Shown here in pieces: positions 5,767 through 61,640 of a DNA stretch of 64,000 nucleotides. Origin of the DNA: an uncultured delta proteobacterium (GTDB lineage: Bacteria > Myxococcota_A > Polyangia > Polyangiales > B10-G4); NCBI GenBank assembly GCA_963727445.1, contig CAVSGI010000013.1:273316-337315 (forward strand), in the 5' to 3' direction. The position numbers and the translations under genes were made by a program. Below the pieces are notes generated by a model. It had not been told where the DNA came from. It saw nothing but the letters and a program-made list of their open reading frames with translations, and searched no databases. Within the stretch, counting starts at the first letter, position 1. Each line of letters begins with the position of its first letter.

Positions 5767-7299
<1,533 letters not shown>

Positions 7300-7354
7300 G
7301 TGGCGCCAGATGCTACATGGGGGGAGAGGGCTTCGCGACTCTTTCCTAAGACTC

Positions 7355-8245
7355 ATGGCACTCGACGAATGGCTCGCGATCGACGGCGTTCCGAGGGACG
7401 AAGCGCCCGAAGAGCACCGCGATGCGGAGGGGATCGCCGTCCGCAGCGACGCCCTCGTGTCCGTGGAGAGAGGGCGGATCACGGTGGTCCCCTGGACCTC
7501 GGTGCTGTCCGTGGTCCGGGTCGAAGATCGGGTCTACGCGCTCTGCCCGAGGCGTCCGCCCGCGCCCCCGTGGATCGAGATGAAAGCCTCCCACGCCGAG
7601 GCCATCGGCGAGACGCTCGACTCCTTGCGCGACAACCTCGCCGCGCGCGCCAGCCGCCGCGGATACCGGGAGGCGGGCCCGACCCGATCGCTGCTCTCGC
7701 CAAAGGAGCTCTTCGATCGCCTGATCGCGAAGGACCCGGTTCCCGGGACGGTGGAGGTGCCCGTCGGCTACGGGCCGGGCGGACGCACCAGGCTGACAAC
7801 GCGCATCGGACAGACCATCGCCGGGATGGGGATGGGCGCGCTGGGTGGCGTGTATGCGGGCGCCATCCTTCAGGCGATCTTCGTCGCACAGCCGGCGGTT
7901 GCGTTCATCGTCGGCATGGCCTCCACCACCACGGCGGGCGGCGCCGGTATGCTCTACCTGGCGCGTGACAAGAAGGGGCAGGGTCGGGTCCTGGCCCTCG
8001 CGCCCGACGGCATGGTCATCGGGCTGCCCCAAGGCGTCCGGGCGTATGGGTGGCAGGCGATCGGAGGGTTCCGCGGCGAAGAGCGCGTGCTGCCCGATGG
8101 GTCGGGCCGCTCCTTTCCGCACCTCGTGGTGCAGGGCAGCGACGAGCGCGAGATCGGTGCGATCCACGAGGCCTGGTTCGACCGCCCCCTCGACCTCATC
8201 GTCGCCGTCGCCGAGGCCTATCGCGCGCGATTCTCGAAAGCGTGA
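7355..8245 (+). CDS. Hypothetical protein with a central Gly-rich hydrophobic segment.
   Basis: ORF 7310..8245 with good codon bias. ATG at 7355 chosen (MALDEW...). The start is uncertain. Confidence 0.4.
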   Translation: MALDEWLAIDGVPRDEAPEEHRDAEGIAVRSDALVSVERGRITVVPWTSVLSVVRVEDRVYALCPRRPPAPPWIEMKASHAEAIGETLDSLRDNLAARASRRGYREAGPTRSLLSPKELFDRLIAKDPVPGTVEVPVGYGPGGRTRLTTRIGQTIAGMGMGALGGVYAGAILQAIFVAQPAVAFIVGMASTTTAGGAGMLYLARDKKGQGRVLALAPDGMVIGLPQGVRAYGWQAIGGFRGEERVLPDGSGRSFPHLVVQGSDEREIGAIHEAWFDRPLDLIVAVAEAYRARFSKA

Positions 8246-8273
8246 CGCCCGCCGCAGTCGCCGCGGTCAACCG

Positions 8274-8368
8274 ACGGGGACGGTCTACACTTTTCAACTT
8301 TCGGCGGTGTCAACTGACGGGGATGTCAACTGACGGGGACGGTCTACACTTTTCAACTTTCGGCGGTG
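8274..8368. repeat. REP-like element locus A. Two direct copies of ACGGGGACGGTCTACACTTTTCAACTTTCGGCGGTG (8274-8309 and 8333-8368) separated by a partly duplicated 23-nt linker.
   Basis: Exact 36-nt duplication read in the sequence. The same core recurs at ~27.7 kb and ~55.8 kb. Confidence 0.85.
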
Positions 8369-8562
8369 ACGCCGGTCTCAGCCGCCGAGAGATCGCCGCG
8401 TGCCTGGGCACGTGATGCTCGCCGTAGTCGCCGTGAGGGACGAGGTGTCCAGGTGCGTCAGCCGCCGAGCGCCCCCGCAGGCGCCGACTGAGGCGCACTG
8501 AAGATGCGTCGCAAGGAGGCGTCGAGGAGGAAAGCCGGCGGATGACGTGCCTGGGCGCCTCG

Positions 8563-27697: not shown

Positions 27698-27858
27698 CAC
27701 GGGGACGGTCTACACTTTTCAACTTTCGCCTTGGCCGCGGGTATGCGGGTGGAACCCCGACGTGCGTGGCGAAAGTTGAAAAGTGTAGACCGTCCCCACT
27801 AGCCTGCGGGTGGAACCCCGACGTGCGTGGCGAAAGTTGAAAAGTGTAGACCGTCCCC
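27698..27858. repeat. REP-like element locus B. One forward copy (27698-27730) and two reverse copies (27770-27797, 27831-27858). A 53-nt unit (GCGGGTGGAACCCCGACGTGCGTGG plus the reverse copy) is tandemly duplicated.
   Basis: GGGGACGGTCTACACTTTTCAACTTTCG and its exact reverse complement were read directly. They can form a ~28-bp stem. Confidence 0.85.
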
Positions 27859-27859
27859 A

Positions 27860-29086
27860 TTAGCCTTCGGATCGGTATTCGAGGTAGCCGCTGACCAGGG
27901 CGTCGTAGAGCCAGCCGGCGACGATGCGGCGGCCGTGCGGGCTGAGGTGCTTGAGGTCCGAGGCGGCGAGGCCCTCGTGCAACCACCGGCGAAAGGAGCC
28001 GGCGCCACCCATCGCGGCGTAGGTGTCGAAGAAGGCGCAGCCGGCCTCGTGCGCCGCCGCCCGCTGGGCGTCGACCGCGGCCTGCACCTCCTCGGGACGA
28101 ATGTGGCTCCGGCCGCTCATCTCGTGCTCGATGATCCCGGTGAGGAGGCAGCCCGACTCGGGCAGAGCGCTCCGCACCCGCGCCAGCACCCGCCGGGTCT
28201 CCTCCTGAAACTCCGCGGAGGAACCCGCGCGCCCCACGTGGCGGCGCAGGTCGTTTCCGCCGTAGGTGAGGATCACCAGGTCCGAGGCCCGGGCGCGGAG
28301 CTGGCCGGCGAAATGTGGCTCGTCGTACTCGAGGAGCCGCGTGGTGAAGGCGCCGATCATCGACAGCGTGTCCCAGACCACCCCTGGCCCGTCGGTCTCG
28401 AGCACCACGCCATACGCGCGCGTGCGCCCGCCGCCCGCATGGCGGAGCCGCACCTTGTGGTGACCGGCGGGCATGCGCATGCGATGGAAGCGGTCTTCGA
28501 GCGCCTCCGCCGCCGTGTCGAAGATCAGCTCGGGCTCGCCGTCGACCTTCAGTCCCAGCCGCCCGCCGCGCCGCTGCGTCGCGTACCACAGCTCGAGTCG
28601 ACTCGCGGTCGTGCCGTATCCGCCCTCGCGGCGGGTCTCGATGATCGTACGCGCCCCCCGCGAGCCGAGGGTGGCGACGCCCCCGAGACCGTAGTGGCCG
28701 TCGTCGAGGCAGCGGAAGATCAGGTAGCAGAACTCCCATGGCGGACGGTTCGCCAGGTGAACGGTGTTGTTGCGGTACGAGGTGGAGTGCGGTTGTGCGA
28801 GGACGAAACCGGTGCCGCCGTCCCCGAAGCGATCCTGAAAACGGCGGCGGAGGTAGTGAGGGAGCTGATCCATCCCGATAGAGGAGTCGCCCATATGGGT
28901 CACGCGGGTGATGGCACCCCTCGCGCCGTCGTCGGTGCGCGCGAGCGCGCGGTAGAACCCGTCGAGGGAGTGGGCGGGGTCGGTGATGGGATGCTCCGCG
29001 GCCCGCGGATCACCGTCGCGCGGCTGCCAGCTCGGGGTCGCTGGCCGCACCGGCGAGGGGGCCGGTGCGTCGACCGCTGGCGGCAC
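27860..29086 (-). CDS. SGNH/GDSL-family hydrolase, probably a lipoprotein. The N-terminus is unresolved.
   Basis: 'VTHMGDSSIGMD' (block I Ser) and 'ILTYGGNDL' (block III). An in-frame upstream lipoprotein signal RLFAALACSLALASC lacks a canonical start codon (see finding). Confidence 0.65.
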   Translation of the reverse strand: MPPAVDAPAPSPVRPATPSWQPRDGDPRAAEHPITDPAHSLDGFYRALARTDDGARGAITRVTHMGDSSIGMDQLPHYLRRRFQDRFGDGGTGFVLAQPHSTSYRNNTVHLANRPPWEFCYLIFRCLDDGHYGLGGVATLGSRGARTIIETRREGGYGTTASRLELWYATQRRGGRLGLKVDGEPELIFDTAAEALEDRFHRMRMPAGHHKVRLRHAGGGRTRAYGVVLETDGPGVVWDTLSMIGAFTTRLLEYDEPHFAGQLRARASDLVILTYGGNDLRRHVGRAGSSAEFQEETRRVLARVRSALPESGCLLTGIIEHEMSGRSHIRPEEVQAAVDAQRAAAHEAGCAFFDTYAAMGGAGSFRRWLHEGLAASDLKHLSPHGRRIVAGWLYDALVSGYLEYRSEG

Positions 29087-54446: not shown

Positions 54447-55124
54447 TCAGTCGCTGGTCAGCGGCTCGAAGAGCGTGATGGAGCCGGCGACGAAGACGAG
54501 GTCGAAAGCGCCGAGGATGCGGAGCCAGGCGAGGGTGTCGCCGAGGGGGGCGTCGGCGAGCAGATCGCGGGTCGCGACGACACCGGCGAGCAGCGCGGGG
54601 CTGACCAACGGGAAGAGGATGATGGAGAGCATGAGGTCGCGGGCGCTGGTGCGGACGCTCATGGCGGAGAAGAGCGTGCCGGCCGCGACGAAGCCGAGGG
54701 TGCCGAGGAAGAGGACCATGGTGAGGCGGCCGAGGATCGGGAGGAGATCGAGCTGGAAGAAGAAGGTGACGAGGGGCAGGAGCATGAGCTCGACGGCCGT
54801 CAGGAAGAGGAGCGCGCCGAGGGCCTTGCCGATGTAGATGGAGGCGCGGGGGATCGGGGTCAGGAGCAGGCCGCGCATGGCGTCGTGGTCGCGCTCGCGC
54901 ATCCAGCTGCGGCCCATGGCCAGGACGCCGGAGAAGGTGATGGTGATCCACAGGACGCCCGGGGCGATCTGCTTGGAGGCGTTTTGATCGATGTAGAAGG
55001 AGAGCGACGCCAGGACGGTGAGGAGGAACGCGAAGAGGCCGACCGTGACGAGGATCTCGCCGGTGCGGAGCTCGATGCGCAGGTCCTTACCGAGGACGAG
55101 GAGGGCGGCGCGGAGGGTGGTCAC
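54447..55124 (-). CDS. ccmB: Heme exporter permease CcmB.
   Basis: 225 aa, 6 TM helices, N-terminus MTTLRAALLVLGKDLRIELRTGE. 4-nt overlap with ccmA. Confidence 0.7.
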   Translation of the reverse strand: MTTLRAALLVLGKDLRIELRTGEILVTVGLFAFLLTVLASLSFYIDQNASKQIAPGVLWITITFSGVLAMGRSWMRERDHDAMRGLLLTPIPRASIYIGKALGALLFLTAVELMLLPLVTFFFQLDLLPILGRLTMVLFLGTLGFVAAGTLFSAMSVRTSARDLMLSIILFPLVSPALLAGVVATRDLLADAPLGDTLAWLRILGAFDLVFVAGSITLFEPLTSD

Positions 55125-55774
55125 CGGTCGTCCCCGCTGACGACGCGGCCGCGGTCGAGGCGAACGCGGACGTCGCCGACGCGATCGGCGAGGGCGGGGT
55201 CATGGGTGATGAGGACGCAGATCGCGCCGCGCTCGCGCTCGGCTTCGACGACGTCGACGAGCCTCCGGACGGCGCTCTCGTCGAGGCCGGTGGAGGGCTC
55301 GTCGAGGAGGAGGAGGCGCGGCGCGTGGAGGACCGCGCGGGCGAGGGCGACGCGCTGGAGCTGTCCGCGCGAGTAGGTGCGGGTCGGGCGGTCGAAGAAG
55401 CGGCCCAGCTCGAAGCGTTCTTCGAGGGCGGGGATGCGCTCTTCGGGATCGAGGGCGTAGAGGCGAGCGTAGAGGGCGAGGTTCTCGCGGCCGGAGAGGT
55501 CGGGGTAGAGCATGGAAGCGTGGCCGAGCACGCCGAGGTGGCGGCGGATCCCCTTTCGCGCCGCGCGCTCGGACAGCTCGCCGTAGCGGACCTTCCCGCG
55601 CGTGGGCCGCGCCAGCTGCGCCAGGATAGACAGGAGCGTGCTCTTCCCCGACCCGTTCGGCCCCTCGACCACCGTCACCTTCCCGGCGACCAGCTCGAGA
55701 TCCACCCCCGCGAGCGCGCGAGTCAACCCGAACATCTTCGTCAGCCCCTCAGTCCGAACCCGCTCGAAGTCCAC
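55121..55774 (-). CDS. ccmA: Heme exporter ATP-binding protein CcmA (ABC ATPase).
   Basis: Walker A 'GPNGSGKSTLL', signature 'YSRGQLQRVALA', Walker B 'LLLDEP'. Confidence 0.75.
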   Translation of the reverse strand: MDFERVRTEGLTKMFGLTRALAGVDLELVAGKVTVVEGPNGSGKSTLLSILAQLARPTRGKVRYGELSERAARKGIRRHLGVLGHASMLYPDLSGRENLALYARLYALDPEERIPALEERFELGRFFDRPTRTYSRGQLQRVALARAVLHAPRLLLLDEPSTGLDESAVRRLVDVVEAERERGAICVLITHDPALADRVGDVRVRLDRGRVVSGDDR

Positions 55775-55786
55775 CCCCGAATGCTA

Positions 55787-55975
55787 ACGGGGACGGTCTA
55801 CACTTTTGAACTTTCGCGCCGCCCAGCCAACGGGGACGGTCTACACTCTTGCACTTTCGGGCCGCCCGGCTTCGGAAAGTGCAAAAGTGTAGACCGTCCC
55901 CATCAGAGGCGGTCCCCATCAGAGGCGTCCCCGTCAGAGGCGGGGGACGGAAAGTGCAAAAGTGTAGACCGTCCC
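55787..55975. repeat. REP-like element locus C. Two forward copies (55787-55816, 55830-55860) and two reverse copies (55873-55901, ~55948-55975), plus three tandem 15-mers CCCC(A/G)TCAGAGGCG(G/T) at 55898-55943.
   Basis: Variants GGGGACGGTCTACAC-TTTTGAACTTTCG and -TCTTGCACTTTCG and their reverse complements. The inner pair forms a ~28-bp hairpin. Confidence 0.85.
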
Positions 55976-55977
55976 CG

Positions 55978-57135
55978 TTAGAAGAGGCGGGTGACGATGG
56001 TGTCTAGGTGGAGCCAGCGGTCTGGGGGGACACAGAGGTGGGTGGCGTCGCGCCGGAGGTCGCCGGATTCGAGGGCGCGGGCGATGGGGCGGGCGCGAAC
56101 GGTGCGGGGATCGAGGCCGGTTCGGCGCGTGACGTCTTCGAGATCGACGCCTTCGCGGGTCCTCAAGCCGAGCATCAGCGCCTCGTTGAGCAGCGTCTCC
56201 GCATCGAGATCCTCGCTCTCCATCTCGAAGCGCCCCTCGCCCACCGCGGCCACATAGTCCTCGCCCACCGCCACGTTCCGCCACCGCCGCGCCCGACCCG
56301 CACCCTCTTCCAAACACCCGACCGCCGCCGCCCCCAACCCCAGATAGGCGCCCCCCCGCCAGTAGTGCTGGTTGTGCAGCGACTCCTCACCGGGCGCCGC
56401 GTAATTGCTCACCTCGTAATGCGCGAGCCCATACGCCGCGAAACGCGCCTCCGCCGCAACGAACATCGCGGCGTAGTCGTCTTCCTTCGCCACCTCGAGC
56501 CGCCCCTTGCGATACAGCTCCCCGAACTGCGTCCCCGGCTCGATCGTCAACGCATACGCGGACACGTGCCTGAGCCCCATGTCCAATAGACGCGTCAGGT
56601 CGTCGTCCACCGACGCCTGCTCCGGCATGCCGAACATCACGTCCGCGCTCACCCGGGGCACTTCGGCCATCGCCGCCTCGAGCGCCGCCCTCCCCTGCGC
56701 CGCATCGTGAAAGCGCCCGAGATATCTCAGCCGCGCGTCGTCGAGGCTCTGCACCCCCACGGAGAGCCTCCCCACCCCGGCCGCGACCAGCGCCGCCGCG
56801 TGCCCGCGATCCAGCGACGAGGGGTTGCACTCCACCGTCACCTCGACGTCCTCCGCATGTACGTCGAACGCAGCGCGCACACCGGCGAGCACACGCCCCA
56901 GCGCCTCCGCCTTCCACAGCGAAGGCGTGCCGCCACCGAAGAAGACGCTGATCAACCGCCGGCCCGCGAGCGACGTGCGCCGCGCCTCGAGCTCCGCGAG
57001 AACCGCGTCCGCATACGCGTCGTGCGGCACGTCCCCGCGATCGATCTTACGCGTCGCGAAGTCGCAGTACGGGCACTTCTTCAGACACCAGGGGAAGTGG
57101 ACGTAGACGGATGTGTCAGTCGCTCGAGGCGCCAT
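55978..57135 (-). CDS. hemW: Radical SAM heme chaperone HemW (HemN-like, oxygen-independent coproporphyrinogen oxidase family).
   Basis: 'VYVHFPWCLKKCPYCDF' CxxxCxxC radical-SAM motif. HemN C-terminal domain. Confidence 0.8.
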   Translation of the reverse strand: MAPRATDTSVYVHFPWCLKKCPYCDFATRKIDRGDVPHDAYADAVLAELEARRTSLAGRRLISVFFGGGTPSLWKAEALGRVLAGVRAAFDVHAEDVEVTVECNPSSLDRGHAAALVAAGVGRLSVGVQSLDDARLRYLGRFHDAAQGRAALEAAMAEVPRVSADVMFGMPEQASVDDDLTRLLDMGLRHVSAYALTIEPGTQFGELYRKGRLEVAKEDDYAAMFVAAEARFAAYGLAHYEVSNYAAPGEESLHNQHYWRGGAYLGLGAAAVGCLEEGAGRARRWRNVAVGEDYVAAVGEGRFEMESEDLDAETLLNEALMLGLRTREGVDLEDVTRRTGLDPRTVRARPIARALESGDLRRDATHLCVPPDRWLHLDTIVTRLF

Positions 57136-60968: not shown

Positions 60969-61640
60969 ATGGGAAATCGGATTTACGTGGGGAACCTGTC
61001 GTACGGCACGGCGGAAGACGGGCTCAGGGCAGTGTTCGAAGAGAGCGGCTACAAGGTCTCGGACGTTCACATAGTCACGGATAGAGAGACGGGTCGCTCC
61101 CGCGGCTTTGCTTTCGTCGAAGTCGAGGATAGCGGGGCGCTCAGCGCCGCCATCTCGTCCCTCGACGGAAAGGAAGTCGATGGGCGTCGGCTCGCACTGA
61201 GCGAAGCACGACCACGTCGCCCTCGCGAAGGCGGTGGTGGTGGTGGCGGTGGCGGCCACGGCGGTCACGGCGGCGGCGGCGGCGGCGGACGCTACAACAA
61301 CGATCGCCGGCCACCGGTGCAGGAACGGCGGCGCCCCTACGGCGGCGGCGGTGGTGGCGGTGGTGGCGGTGGCCACAGCAGCAGCGGCGGCGGCCCTCCC
61401 GGCGGCGGCGGTGGTGGCGGTGGTGGCGGTGATCGCCCGCGCCGCAGCTTCGACAACTTCAGCGCGGGCCCGCCGCCCGATCCGCTGGAGCAACCCTCTG
61501 GCCGCGCCAGCAAGCGTCGCAAGAAGTGGGACAACAAGGATCGCGACGGTGGCGCGGGTCGCAGCGATGACCGCCGCGGCAACAACCGCCGCTCGGGCAA
61601 CCGCAAGCGCCGCGGCTGGGACGACGAAGGCGACTGGTAG
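60969..61640 (+). CDS. RRM-type RNA-binding protein with a long Gly-rich and Arg-rich C-terminal tail.
   Basis: RNP1/RNP2 'IYVGNLSY' and 'RGFAFVEV'. ATG at 60969. GGN-repeat DNA at 61230-61430. Confidence 0.75.
   Translation: MGNRIYVGNLSYGTAEDGLRAVFEESGYKVSDVHIVTDRETGRSRGFAFVEVEDSGALSAAISSLDGKEVDGRRLALSEARPRRPREGGGGGGGGGHGGHGGGGGGGRYNNDRRPPVQERRRPYGGGGGGGGGGGHSSSGGGPPGGGGGGGGGGDRPRRSFDNFSAGPPPDPLEQPSGRASKRRKKWDNKDRDGGAGRSDDRRGNNRRSGNRKRRGWDDEGDW

Follow-up and report, generated by a model that had tools for sequence, protein, structure and literature searches.

A probable compound cluster of inverted-repeat elements between hemW and ccmA in an uncultured Polyangiales-like Myxococcota lineage

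The genes hemW (55978-57135, with Radical_SAM and HemN_C domains), ccmA (55121-55774) and ccmB (54447-55124) all lie on the minus strand of the 64-kb stretch of DNA analyzed here (the window). hemW is upstream and ccmA and ccmB are downstream, and Pfam searches agree with the gene assignments made in a preliminary description of this DNA. The hemW reading frame closes with a TAA stop codon at 55978..55980 (minus strand). The ccmA frame opens with a GTG start codon at 55772..55774 (minus strand), which has an in-frame TAG upstream and leads into an N-terminus, DFERVxTEGLTKM, that is conserved in relatives. A TAGCAT box stands 6 nt upstream of this GTG (55781..55786, minus strand).

The spacer between hemW and ccmA is occupied by four 29-nt arms, two in forward and two in reverse orientation, together with a tandem array of 15/16-nt units, which agrees with the copies and the placement described earlier. 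Each arm consists of GGGGACGGTCTACAC followed by a T-rich tail, and the two variant tails, TTTTGAACTTTCG and TCTTGCACTTTCG, had been read correctly. Arm C1 (GGGGACGGTCTACACTTTTGAACTTTCGC; 55789..55817, plus strand; nhmmer E 1.2e-13) is the outermost copy on the ccmA side and lies 2 nt from the TAGCAT box. Arm C2 (GGGGACGGTCTACACTCTTGCACTTTCGG; 55832..55860, plus strand) provides the 5′ arm of an inner hairpin, and a short, G+C-rich loop or spacer (55861..55872) separates it from the 3′ arm, C3 (55873..55901, minus strand; CGGAAAGTGCAAAAGTGTAGACCGTCCCC as read on the plus strand). The tandem array (55896..55943) holds 3.1 copies of its 15/16-nt unit (GTCCCCATCAGAGGCG) with ~90% matches. Arm C4 (55948..55976, minus strand) is identical to C3, and a single base stands between it and the hemW stop codon.

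Inspection of the inner pair bears out the near-perfect hairpin that had been proposed, with 55832-55858 and 55875-55901 complementary over 27 nt (26/27, 96%) around a 16-nt loop; folded as DNA, the pair gives -31.7 kcal/mol (z -8.6). The accompanying claim that each forward variant has a matching reverse partner holds approximately. Each reverse arm differs from its forward partner by one internal mismatch and at the inner end, and the two reverse arms are identical to each other. An independent Logan assembly from the same organism (L002, run ERR11594398) is identical across the whole block, so the block cannot be put down to an artefact in one assembly.

HemW homologues assign the window to Myxococcota, with a likeness to Polyangiales/Sandaracinaceae. 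Comparison with relatives identifies the block as an insertion. Six relatives whose HemW proteins are 66-76% identical to that of the window (76% for the nearest homologue) keep the order RNase T-hemW-ccmA-ccmB, and their hemW-ccmA spacers measure 2, 18, 31, 35, 43 and 59 nt, the shortest being that of L048. None of these spacers carries an arm. Because all six are short and free of the repeat, the 203-nt spacer found here represents an insertion, and its position can be placed exactly. HemW (C-terminus ...LF*) has the same end point in the window as in the relatives, and a TAGCAT box is found 6-9 nt upstream of the ccmA start, without a Shine-Dalgarno sequence, in the window, L003 (7180-7185), L004 and L046. 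The box is ancestral, given its presence in L003, L004 and L046, and together with the common HemW end it places the block exactly between the hemW stop codon and the ancestral box. The box is a candidate -10 element for leaderless transcription of ccmA. Presence and absence are also seen at the convergent AMMECR1-rplS spacer, which carries the element in a metagenome contig (L006) and is 23 nt long and empty in a metagenome-assembled genome (MAG GCA_012974725.1, L045). As a separate observation, L004 (6703-6761) and L005 (1371-1388) encode an identical HemW (P0002) and differ by a 41-nt indel in the hemW-ccmA spacer, with the TAGCAT box in the longer form; this spacer is thus variable even between very close strains.

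The block is one member of a dispersed inverted-repeat family, as had been suggested, which is represented at three window loci, in L006 and, as a diverged variant, in L045. The 15-nt core GGGGACGGTCTACAC occurs exactly nine times in the window versus 0.14 expected, a count reached in 0/100 shuffles, and these cores are confined to three intergenic loci adjoining gene 3′ ends, of which the hemW-ccmA block is locus C. A profile search recovered 11 copies, nine in the window and two in L006 (all E <= 6e-12), and no more diverged copies beyond those 11. With the two variant arms of L045, 13 arms were available for study. Locus A (8266..8370, plus strand) contains two direct arms, at 8276 and 8335, with no inverted partner; between them lies a truncated 16-nt unit of the form 'flank + GGGGAT' (GTCAACTGAC + GGGGAT, 2.0 perfect copies). 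Just downstream of this locus (8371-8470), a 12-mer, TCAGCCGCCGAG, occurs at 8378 and 8459, and GACGCCGGTCTCAG, right after the second arm, partly resembles a flank plus arm head (GAC-GGGGACGGTCTACA). Locus B (27701..27858) carries a forward arm at 27701 and reverse arms at 27783 and 27844. It comprises a canonical unit with a 61-nt tandem duplication of the right arm, and its last arm lies 1 nt from the stop codon of a GDSL-lipase gene.

The canonical unit, as found at locus B and in L006, is ~97 nt long and consists of an arm, a 37-41-nt G+C-rich spacer and an inverted arm; at locus C the short loop stands in place of this spacer. Inverted doublets with a short spacer are complementary at 30/30 positions at locus B and 27/30 in L006, alongside the 26/27 of the inner pair at locus C. 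Arms are 27-30/30 identical between loci. The spacers of locus B and L006 are ~62% identical and homologous (0/1000 shuffles). Conserved ends around a drifting core are the pattern expected of a MITE.

Within the arm, the invariant head GGGGACGGTCTACAC is followed by a G-free, T-rich tail that carries two RAAAGY half-sites on the other strand; the G-free tract spans 19 nt in a genome of 69% G+C. Complementarity between paired arms begins at the GGGG of the head. The 5-6 nt outside the GGGG are loosely conserved as C-T-R-A-Y, often GCTAAY, and are not complementary in the two simple elements (left flanks CTTCAC and CTCGAT). GTAG and CGTC tetranucleotides occur within the arm (GTGTAGACCGTCCCC), with no unit-level palindrome adjoining them. 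The variant arms of L045 (GGGGACGGACTACGCTTTYTCGCTTTC, twice, of the form GGGGACGGACTACGCTTT(T/C)TCGCTTTC) run in the same direction and take up exactly the interval between a larE-like gene's stop codon and the start codon of AMMECR1, whose product is 80% identical to the AMMECR1 of L006. Common to the window arms and this variant is a skeleton, GGGGACGG-W-CTAC-R-C, after which come two CTTTY/RAAAGY half-sites spaced by 8 nt; the two half-sites differ in concert (GT->GC) when the window family is compared with L045. The genes at family loci are hemW/ccm, GDSL lipase/AAA ATPase, inositol monophosphatase and AMMECR1/rplS.

Several junctions between stop codons and arms were also observed. Two unrelated genes, those for the GDSL lipase (27860-27862) and hemW (55978-55980), end one base before an arm head in the arrangement TAA-Y-GGGG. 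Elsewhere, L006 reads TAG-GGC-TAA-C-GGGG, and in L045 a TAG abuts the GGGG. This adjacency could reflect a target preference for stop-codon-like TAR or just very short ancestral spacers.

Broad searches indicate that the family is rare and patchily distributed. An exact 19-nt arm pattern found one match among species-representative genomes (185,579 genomes; 596 Gb), in an Acidimicrobiales MAG (L001). This match is a single copy with no extension past the 19-mer, where ~4 such matches are expected by chance, and it was rejected as a family member. Thirty-seven viral-contig matches of the 15-mer core were likewise single copies, none extending beyond the core, and all were attributed to chance. 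A scan of 241 million metagenome records returned L006 as the single true relative, and ~76 kb from six other relatives held no family member, which points to a patchy distribution. Rfam searches of the window, L006 and L045 gave nothing at the gathering threshold; the sub-threshold matches were to miRNA hairpins only and correspond to a generic hairpin. Comparison by blastn with plasmids and phages gave no match to the repeat, and a composite peptide query of all open-frame arm translations shared no words with a set of 5.8 billion protein sequences. The 15-mer string had no literature match, and a limited literature search found no relevant description of REP-type repeats in myxobacteria. 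The repeat family is previously undescribed and comes from an uncultured Polyangiales-like Myxococcota lineage.

Each window locus carries its own tandem duplication as detected by TRF, with period 16 at locus A, 61 at locus B and 43 plus 15/16 at locus C, which shows that the cluster grew in place, as BIMEs do. At locus C, forward arms C1 and C2 with 6 nt of outer flank (GCYAAC) form a 43-nt tandem repeat (55783..55868; 1.9 copies, 88-92%), and the reverse arms and their flanks match at a 75-nt offset (40 nt, 90%; 55873..55996), pairing C3 and its flank with C4 and the hemW end. A second register was detected in which 55929-55949, covering the third 15-mer and the bases that follow, matches 55973-55996, covering the end of C4, the hemW stop codon and the last five codons (15/17 positions outside the arm, with one 3-nt gap; 0/2000 shuffles score as well). 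Since the hemW end is ancestral, the arm and the hemW-end segment must have been tandemly duplicated. The 15-mers are not a motif of their own; they are slippage-expanded copies of a junction in which the arm end (CCCC) meets the stop and last codons of hemW. Two derived bases, C->G in all four arms and A->C in three, are present at locus C and absent from the arms of A, B and L006. These shared bases indicate a single founder of all locus C copies, an element in which the two arms were already matched. Changes on both arms, of which there are two, are compatible with selection on the hairpin or with arm-to-arm correction, between which one locus does not distinguish. Arm variants are common to both orientations, in line with the earlier description; much of the complexity of the block is owed to local tandem duplication and not to copying as inverted-repeat units.

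Taken together, locus C is probably a compound cluster of a lineage-specific, non-autonomous inverted-repeat element, with MITE-like architecture and BIME-like clustering (terms as defined in the review PMC3184786). The likeness to MITEs lies in terminal inverted repeats enclosing a short non-coding core, ~97 nt in all, and in presence and absence at orthologous sites. The preliminary description would have been refuted had the block been part of a larger mobile element with its own transposase and terminal repeats. The block does not belong to such an element; its neighbours are syntenic housekeeping genes. Searched against Pfam, ~45 window ORFs, including those of atypical composition, yielded no transposase, integrase or Y1 domain and hence no RAYT; they are ordinary chromosomal genes such as gyrB, ClpB, BamA/TamB, Mur ligase and DnaJ. 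Target-site duplications, which had been put forward as a mark of MITE-like copies, were sought at 2-9 bp with any boundary offset, and none was common to the five arm pairs; a 2-bp flanking repeat (TA or CA) appears in the two locus C pairs only. With neither a consistent target-site duplication nor a window-encoded transposase, membership among MITEs is incomplete. The likeness to BIMEs lies in the forward, forward, reverse, reverse layout and its growth by tandem duplication, with units that are not REP palindromes.

In terms of mechanism, comparison with relatives shows that one ~97-nt element entered an ancestral hemW-ccmA spacer that was very short, landing between the stop codon of hemW and the TAGCAT box. 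The locus then grew in place. A 43-nt tandem duplication doubled the forward arm, and the reverse arm was doubled by another, which took in that arm together with the last five codons of hemW; slippage then triplicated the 15-nt junction of arm end and flank. The original spread between loci presumably occurred via an enzyme encoded elsewhere in the genome.

Other readings of the arms, and one of the block as a terminator, were weighed against this account. It is unlikely, if the least so of these alternatives, that the arms are host-selected cis-acting sites, such as sites for a lineage-specific DNA- or RNA-binding protein or 3′-UTR elements, kept for their function. Selection of this kind would fit the contrast between arms identical at 27-30/30 positions and an intervening spacer identical at only ~62%, the concerted change of the RAAAGY half-sites between the window family and L045, and the 19-nt G-free tail in so G+C-rich a genome. 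It would also fit the arms found directly after stop codons, which at four loci all share the same mRNA-sense orientation and lie within 0-7 nt of that stop. Transposase recognition, however, also produces conserved ends around a variable core. Moreover, the flanking genes have no common functional theme, the element is absent at the same sites in close relatives, and the messy local duplications and truncated copies look like by-products rather than design. The idea that the arms encode a read-through peptide was rejected because the frame of the arm with respect to the stop codon varies from locus to locus.

Also unlikely is a REP/REPIN family mobilized by a RAYT (a Y1 HUH transposase), in which the inverted arm pair would be a REPIN acting as a single-stranded DNA hairpin. 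Extragenic copies near gene 3′ ends, nine in 64 kb at three intergenic loci, are what is expected of REPs, and an inverted doublet with a short spacer that forms a hairpin is what is expected of a REPIN. The strictly extragenic distribution downstream of genes and the long hairpins of the inverted pairs accordingly favor this view. So does the lack of target-site duplication, as expected for HUH-type transposition, and the C-T-R-A-Y flank before the GGGG could be a cleavage or target tetranucleotide. In REPs one end of the palindrome bears an unpaired tag, GTAG or CGTC (PMC3733652), and both tetranucleotides occur in the arm, though beside no unit-level palindrome. Compensatory evolution has been reported for REPINs (Bertels & Rainey 2011, PMC3116915), and the changes on both arms at locus C resemble it. 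Yet a REP is by definition palindromic in each unit, and the arm by itself is not: three arms folded singly gave z 0.35, 0.06 and 0.80, no better than shuffles, versus z -8.4 to -10.1 for arm pairs. The arm is therefore not a REP, and the earlier label REP-like has to be given up. Intact direct-only pairs at locus A and in L045 also speak against a REPIN, as do the lack of a RAYT in the window and a flank consensus too loose for a defined target.

We consider it quite improbable that the mobile or functional unit is the single non-palindromic 29-nt arm, with a lineage-specific enzyme that reads the two co-varying RAAAGY half-sites and acts at Y|GGGG. Under such a scheme, the stutter units of 'flank + GGGGAY' (the 15/16-mers of locus C and the 16-mer of locus A) would be footprints of the enzyme's activity, as perhaps would a 13-nt array, CCGTTCCCCGTTC, in L049; if true, the repeats would form a class apart from both REPs and MITEs. 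The array in question (L049:10565-10623, from the same JGI sample as L003) consists of 4.5 tandem copies that immediately follow the stop codon of AMMECR1. Its complementary strand, AAC-GGGGAACGG, resembles the 'flank + GGGGAC' stutter units seen at loci A and C; the array comes with no full arm.

A separate set of observations concerns AMMECR1 itself. At L044:1555-1567, L045:5235-5247 and L049:10528-10540, ~20-120 nt from where L006 and L045 carry arms, its last codons (S-G-T-V-Y) are GGGGACCGTCTAC or GGGGACGGTTTAC and agree with the arm head GGGGACGGTCTAC at 12/13 positions. The background for a match of this type is ~1 per 161 kb of high-G+C DNA, and as the matches stem from one conserved coding sequence they count as a single event. 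The match could be a codon-usage coincidence or a hint to arm origin, and under the improbable single-arm reading the arm head might be derived from the conserved AMMECR1 3′ end (GGGGACGGTYTAC). Homology of the arm to the L044 terminator hairpin or to the larE-AMMECR1 spacer was considered and rejected, the similarities being short and gapped.

The preliminary description had placed the block so as to terminate hemW or insulate the ccmAB promoter. A transcription terminator or insulator for hemW now appears very improbable, although the block forms a very stable hairpin immediately past the end of hemW, and further copies of the family occupy spacers between convergent genes, a setting that calls for bidirectional terminators. 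The block and its borders showed neither a canonical terminator nor a sigma-70 promoter; a terminator scan of 55400-56400 returned no site, and the hairpins are followed by GUUGGC and GUUAGCAUUCGG, neither of which is a U-tract. The 2-59 nt spacers of the relatives imply co-transcription, perhaps with translational coupling (given the 2 nt in L048), and termination here would cut off ccmAB unless a new promoter had arisen. Locus A and L045, which are direct-only, allow no hairpin, so termination or insulation cannot be the general role of the family; hairpin-dependent roles are local consequences rather than the reason the family exists. An outward-facing promoter, with TTGAAA/TTCAAA in the arm as a -35 element ~18 nt from a TAGCMT flank, was also rejected: the best score is 8/12, the scan did not find it, and the L045 variant does not keep the -35-like hexamer. 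At locus C itself, arm C1 puts TTCAAA 18 nt upstream of the TAGCAT box (score 8/12), and there is a weak possibility that C1 supplies a -35 element to ccmA, which would not be a general property of the family.

Integron attC sites have the core sites RYYYAAC and GTTRRRY, and it is almost certainly wrong to read the arms as attC-like recombination sites from the GYYAAC...GTTRRC-like sequences just outside them: some copies are indeed flanked by GCTAAC/GTTAGC, and the ~97 nt size and imperfect-palindrome layout fit, but the stems are continuously paired without extrahelical bases or an unpaired central spacer, the left flanks of the two complete elements (CTTCAC and CTCGAT) do not fit, the copies separate housekeeping genes rather than cassettes in mixed orientations, and the window contains no integrase. 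A CRISPR-like mini-array was ruled out by the inverted copies and the duplicated 'spacers'.

For an inserted compound element, the consequence for the two genes is most likely an uncoupling of the hemW and ccmA cistrons by the hairpin, as judged by analogy with REP/BIME and Correia elements (review PMC3184786). If hemW and ccmAB are co-transcribed, their RNA would contain a nested hairpin of ~200 nt that starts 1 nt past the stop codon of hemW and extends as far as the start codon of ccmA. The minus-strand RNA from the hemW end to the ccmA start (226 nt) is predicted to form a nested double hairpin of -155.6 kcal/mol (z -16.6), and at the base of the predicted fold the last hemW codons are paired with the ccmA GTG region. 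Such a hairpin would either block 3′-exonucleases or be a site at which the hemW transcript is processed, and translation would no longer be coupled into ccmA. Expression of ccmA would then rely on its own initiation, possibly from a leaderless transcript via the TAGCAT box.

The locus offers a clean natural experiment, in which a tightly linked and probably co-translated pair of genes that both handle haem has been split by a hairpin-forming insert of ~190 nt. It could serve for studying how inserts of this sort rewire the expression of operons and how palindromic repeat clusters grow by local duplication, and the family is a good marker of its lineage in metagenomes; no new biological mechanism is indicated.

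Other repeats were seen in the course of the analysis. Another long inverted repeat with close arms occurs only once in the window, a 28-nt overlapping palindrome at 2109-2154 (86% complementary; GGCCCCAGCGCGAAGAGCTTCAGCTGAA...). The 99-nt and 48-nt periodic tandem repeats at 5900-6303 lie inside an ORF (5767-7533, minus strand) with thrombospondin type 3 repeats; they are coding, belong to a secreted protein of calcium-binding type and are unrelated to the block. Trinucleotide tracts of GGC/CGG (~20 and ~30 copies at 75% match) occupy 61230-61429, a stretch in which no ORF of clearly coding-like composition was found. In L003, an unrelated intergenic inverted repeat (1271-1409) has 29-nt arms (ATTGACGAGAAGGCTCCGTCCGACGTAGC and its complement) that are 90% complementary and 81 nt apart; it may be that lineage's own small repeat family.

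Comparison with known systems places the family nearest to several classes without full identity to any. REPINs (PMC3116915) resemble it in having two inverted short repeats as a hairpin, no target-site duplication, homogeneity within a genome and changes on both arms. They differ in that REPIN arms are REP palindromes tied to a RAYT gene, whereas the arms described here do not fold alone. The BIMEs of E. coli share with it alternately oriented copies joined by short linkers, a location between co-directional or convergent genes, local tandem expansion, and a place just after stop codons from which the stability of the upstream mRNA could be affected. In contrast to BIMEs, the repeated unit here is not a palindrome and has no sequence relation to enterobacterial REPs. 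Set against MITEs such as the Correia elements of Neisseria and the enterobacterial ERIC/IRU elements, the family differs in its lack of a consistent target-site duplication and of an autonomous IS with matching ends among the window, plasmids and phages, in its intact solo or direct-only arms (direct-only loci being unusual among MITEs), and in the loosely conserved 5-6 nt outside a perfectly conserved GGGG terminus. The features shared with these MITEs are a small (~97 nt), non-coding element with terminal inverted repeats of ~29 nt and a less conserved core, multiple intergenic copies, a long and very stable RNA stem-loop, empty sites in relatives, and the capacity to separate the cistrons of an operon.
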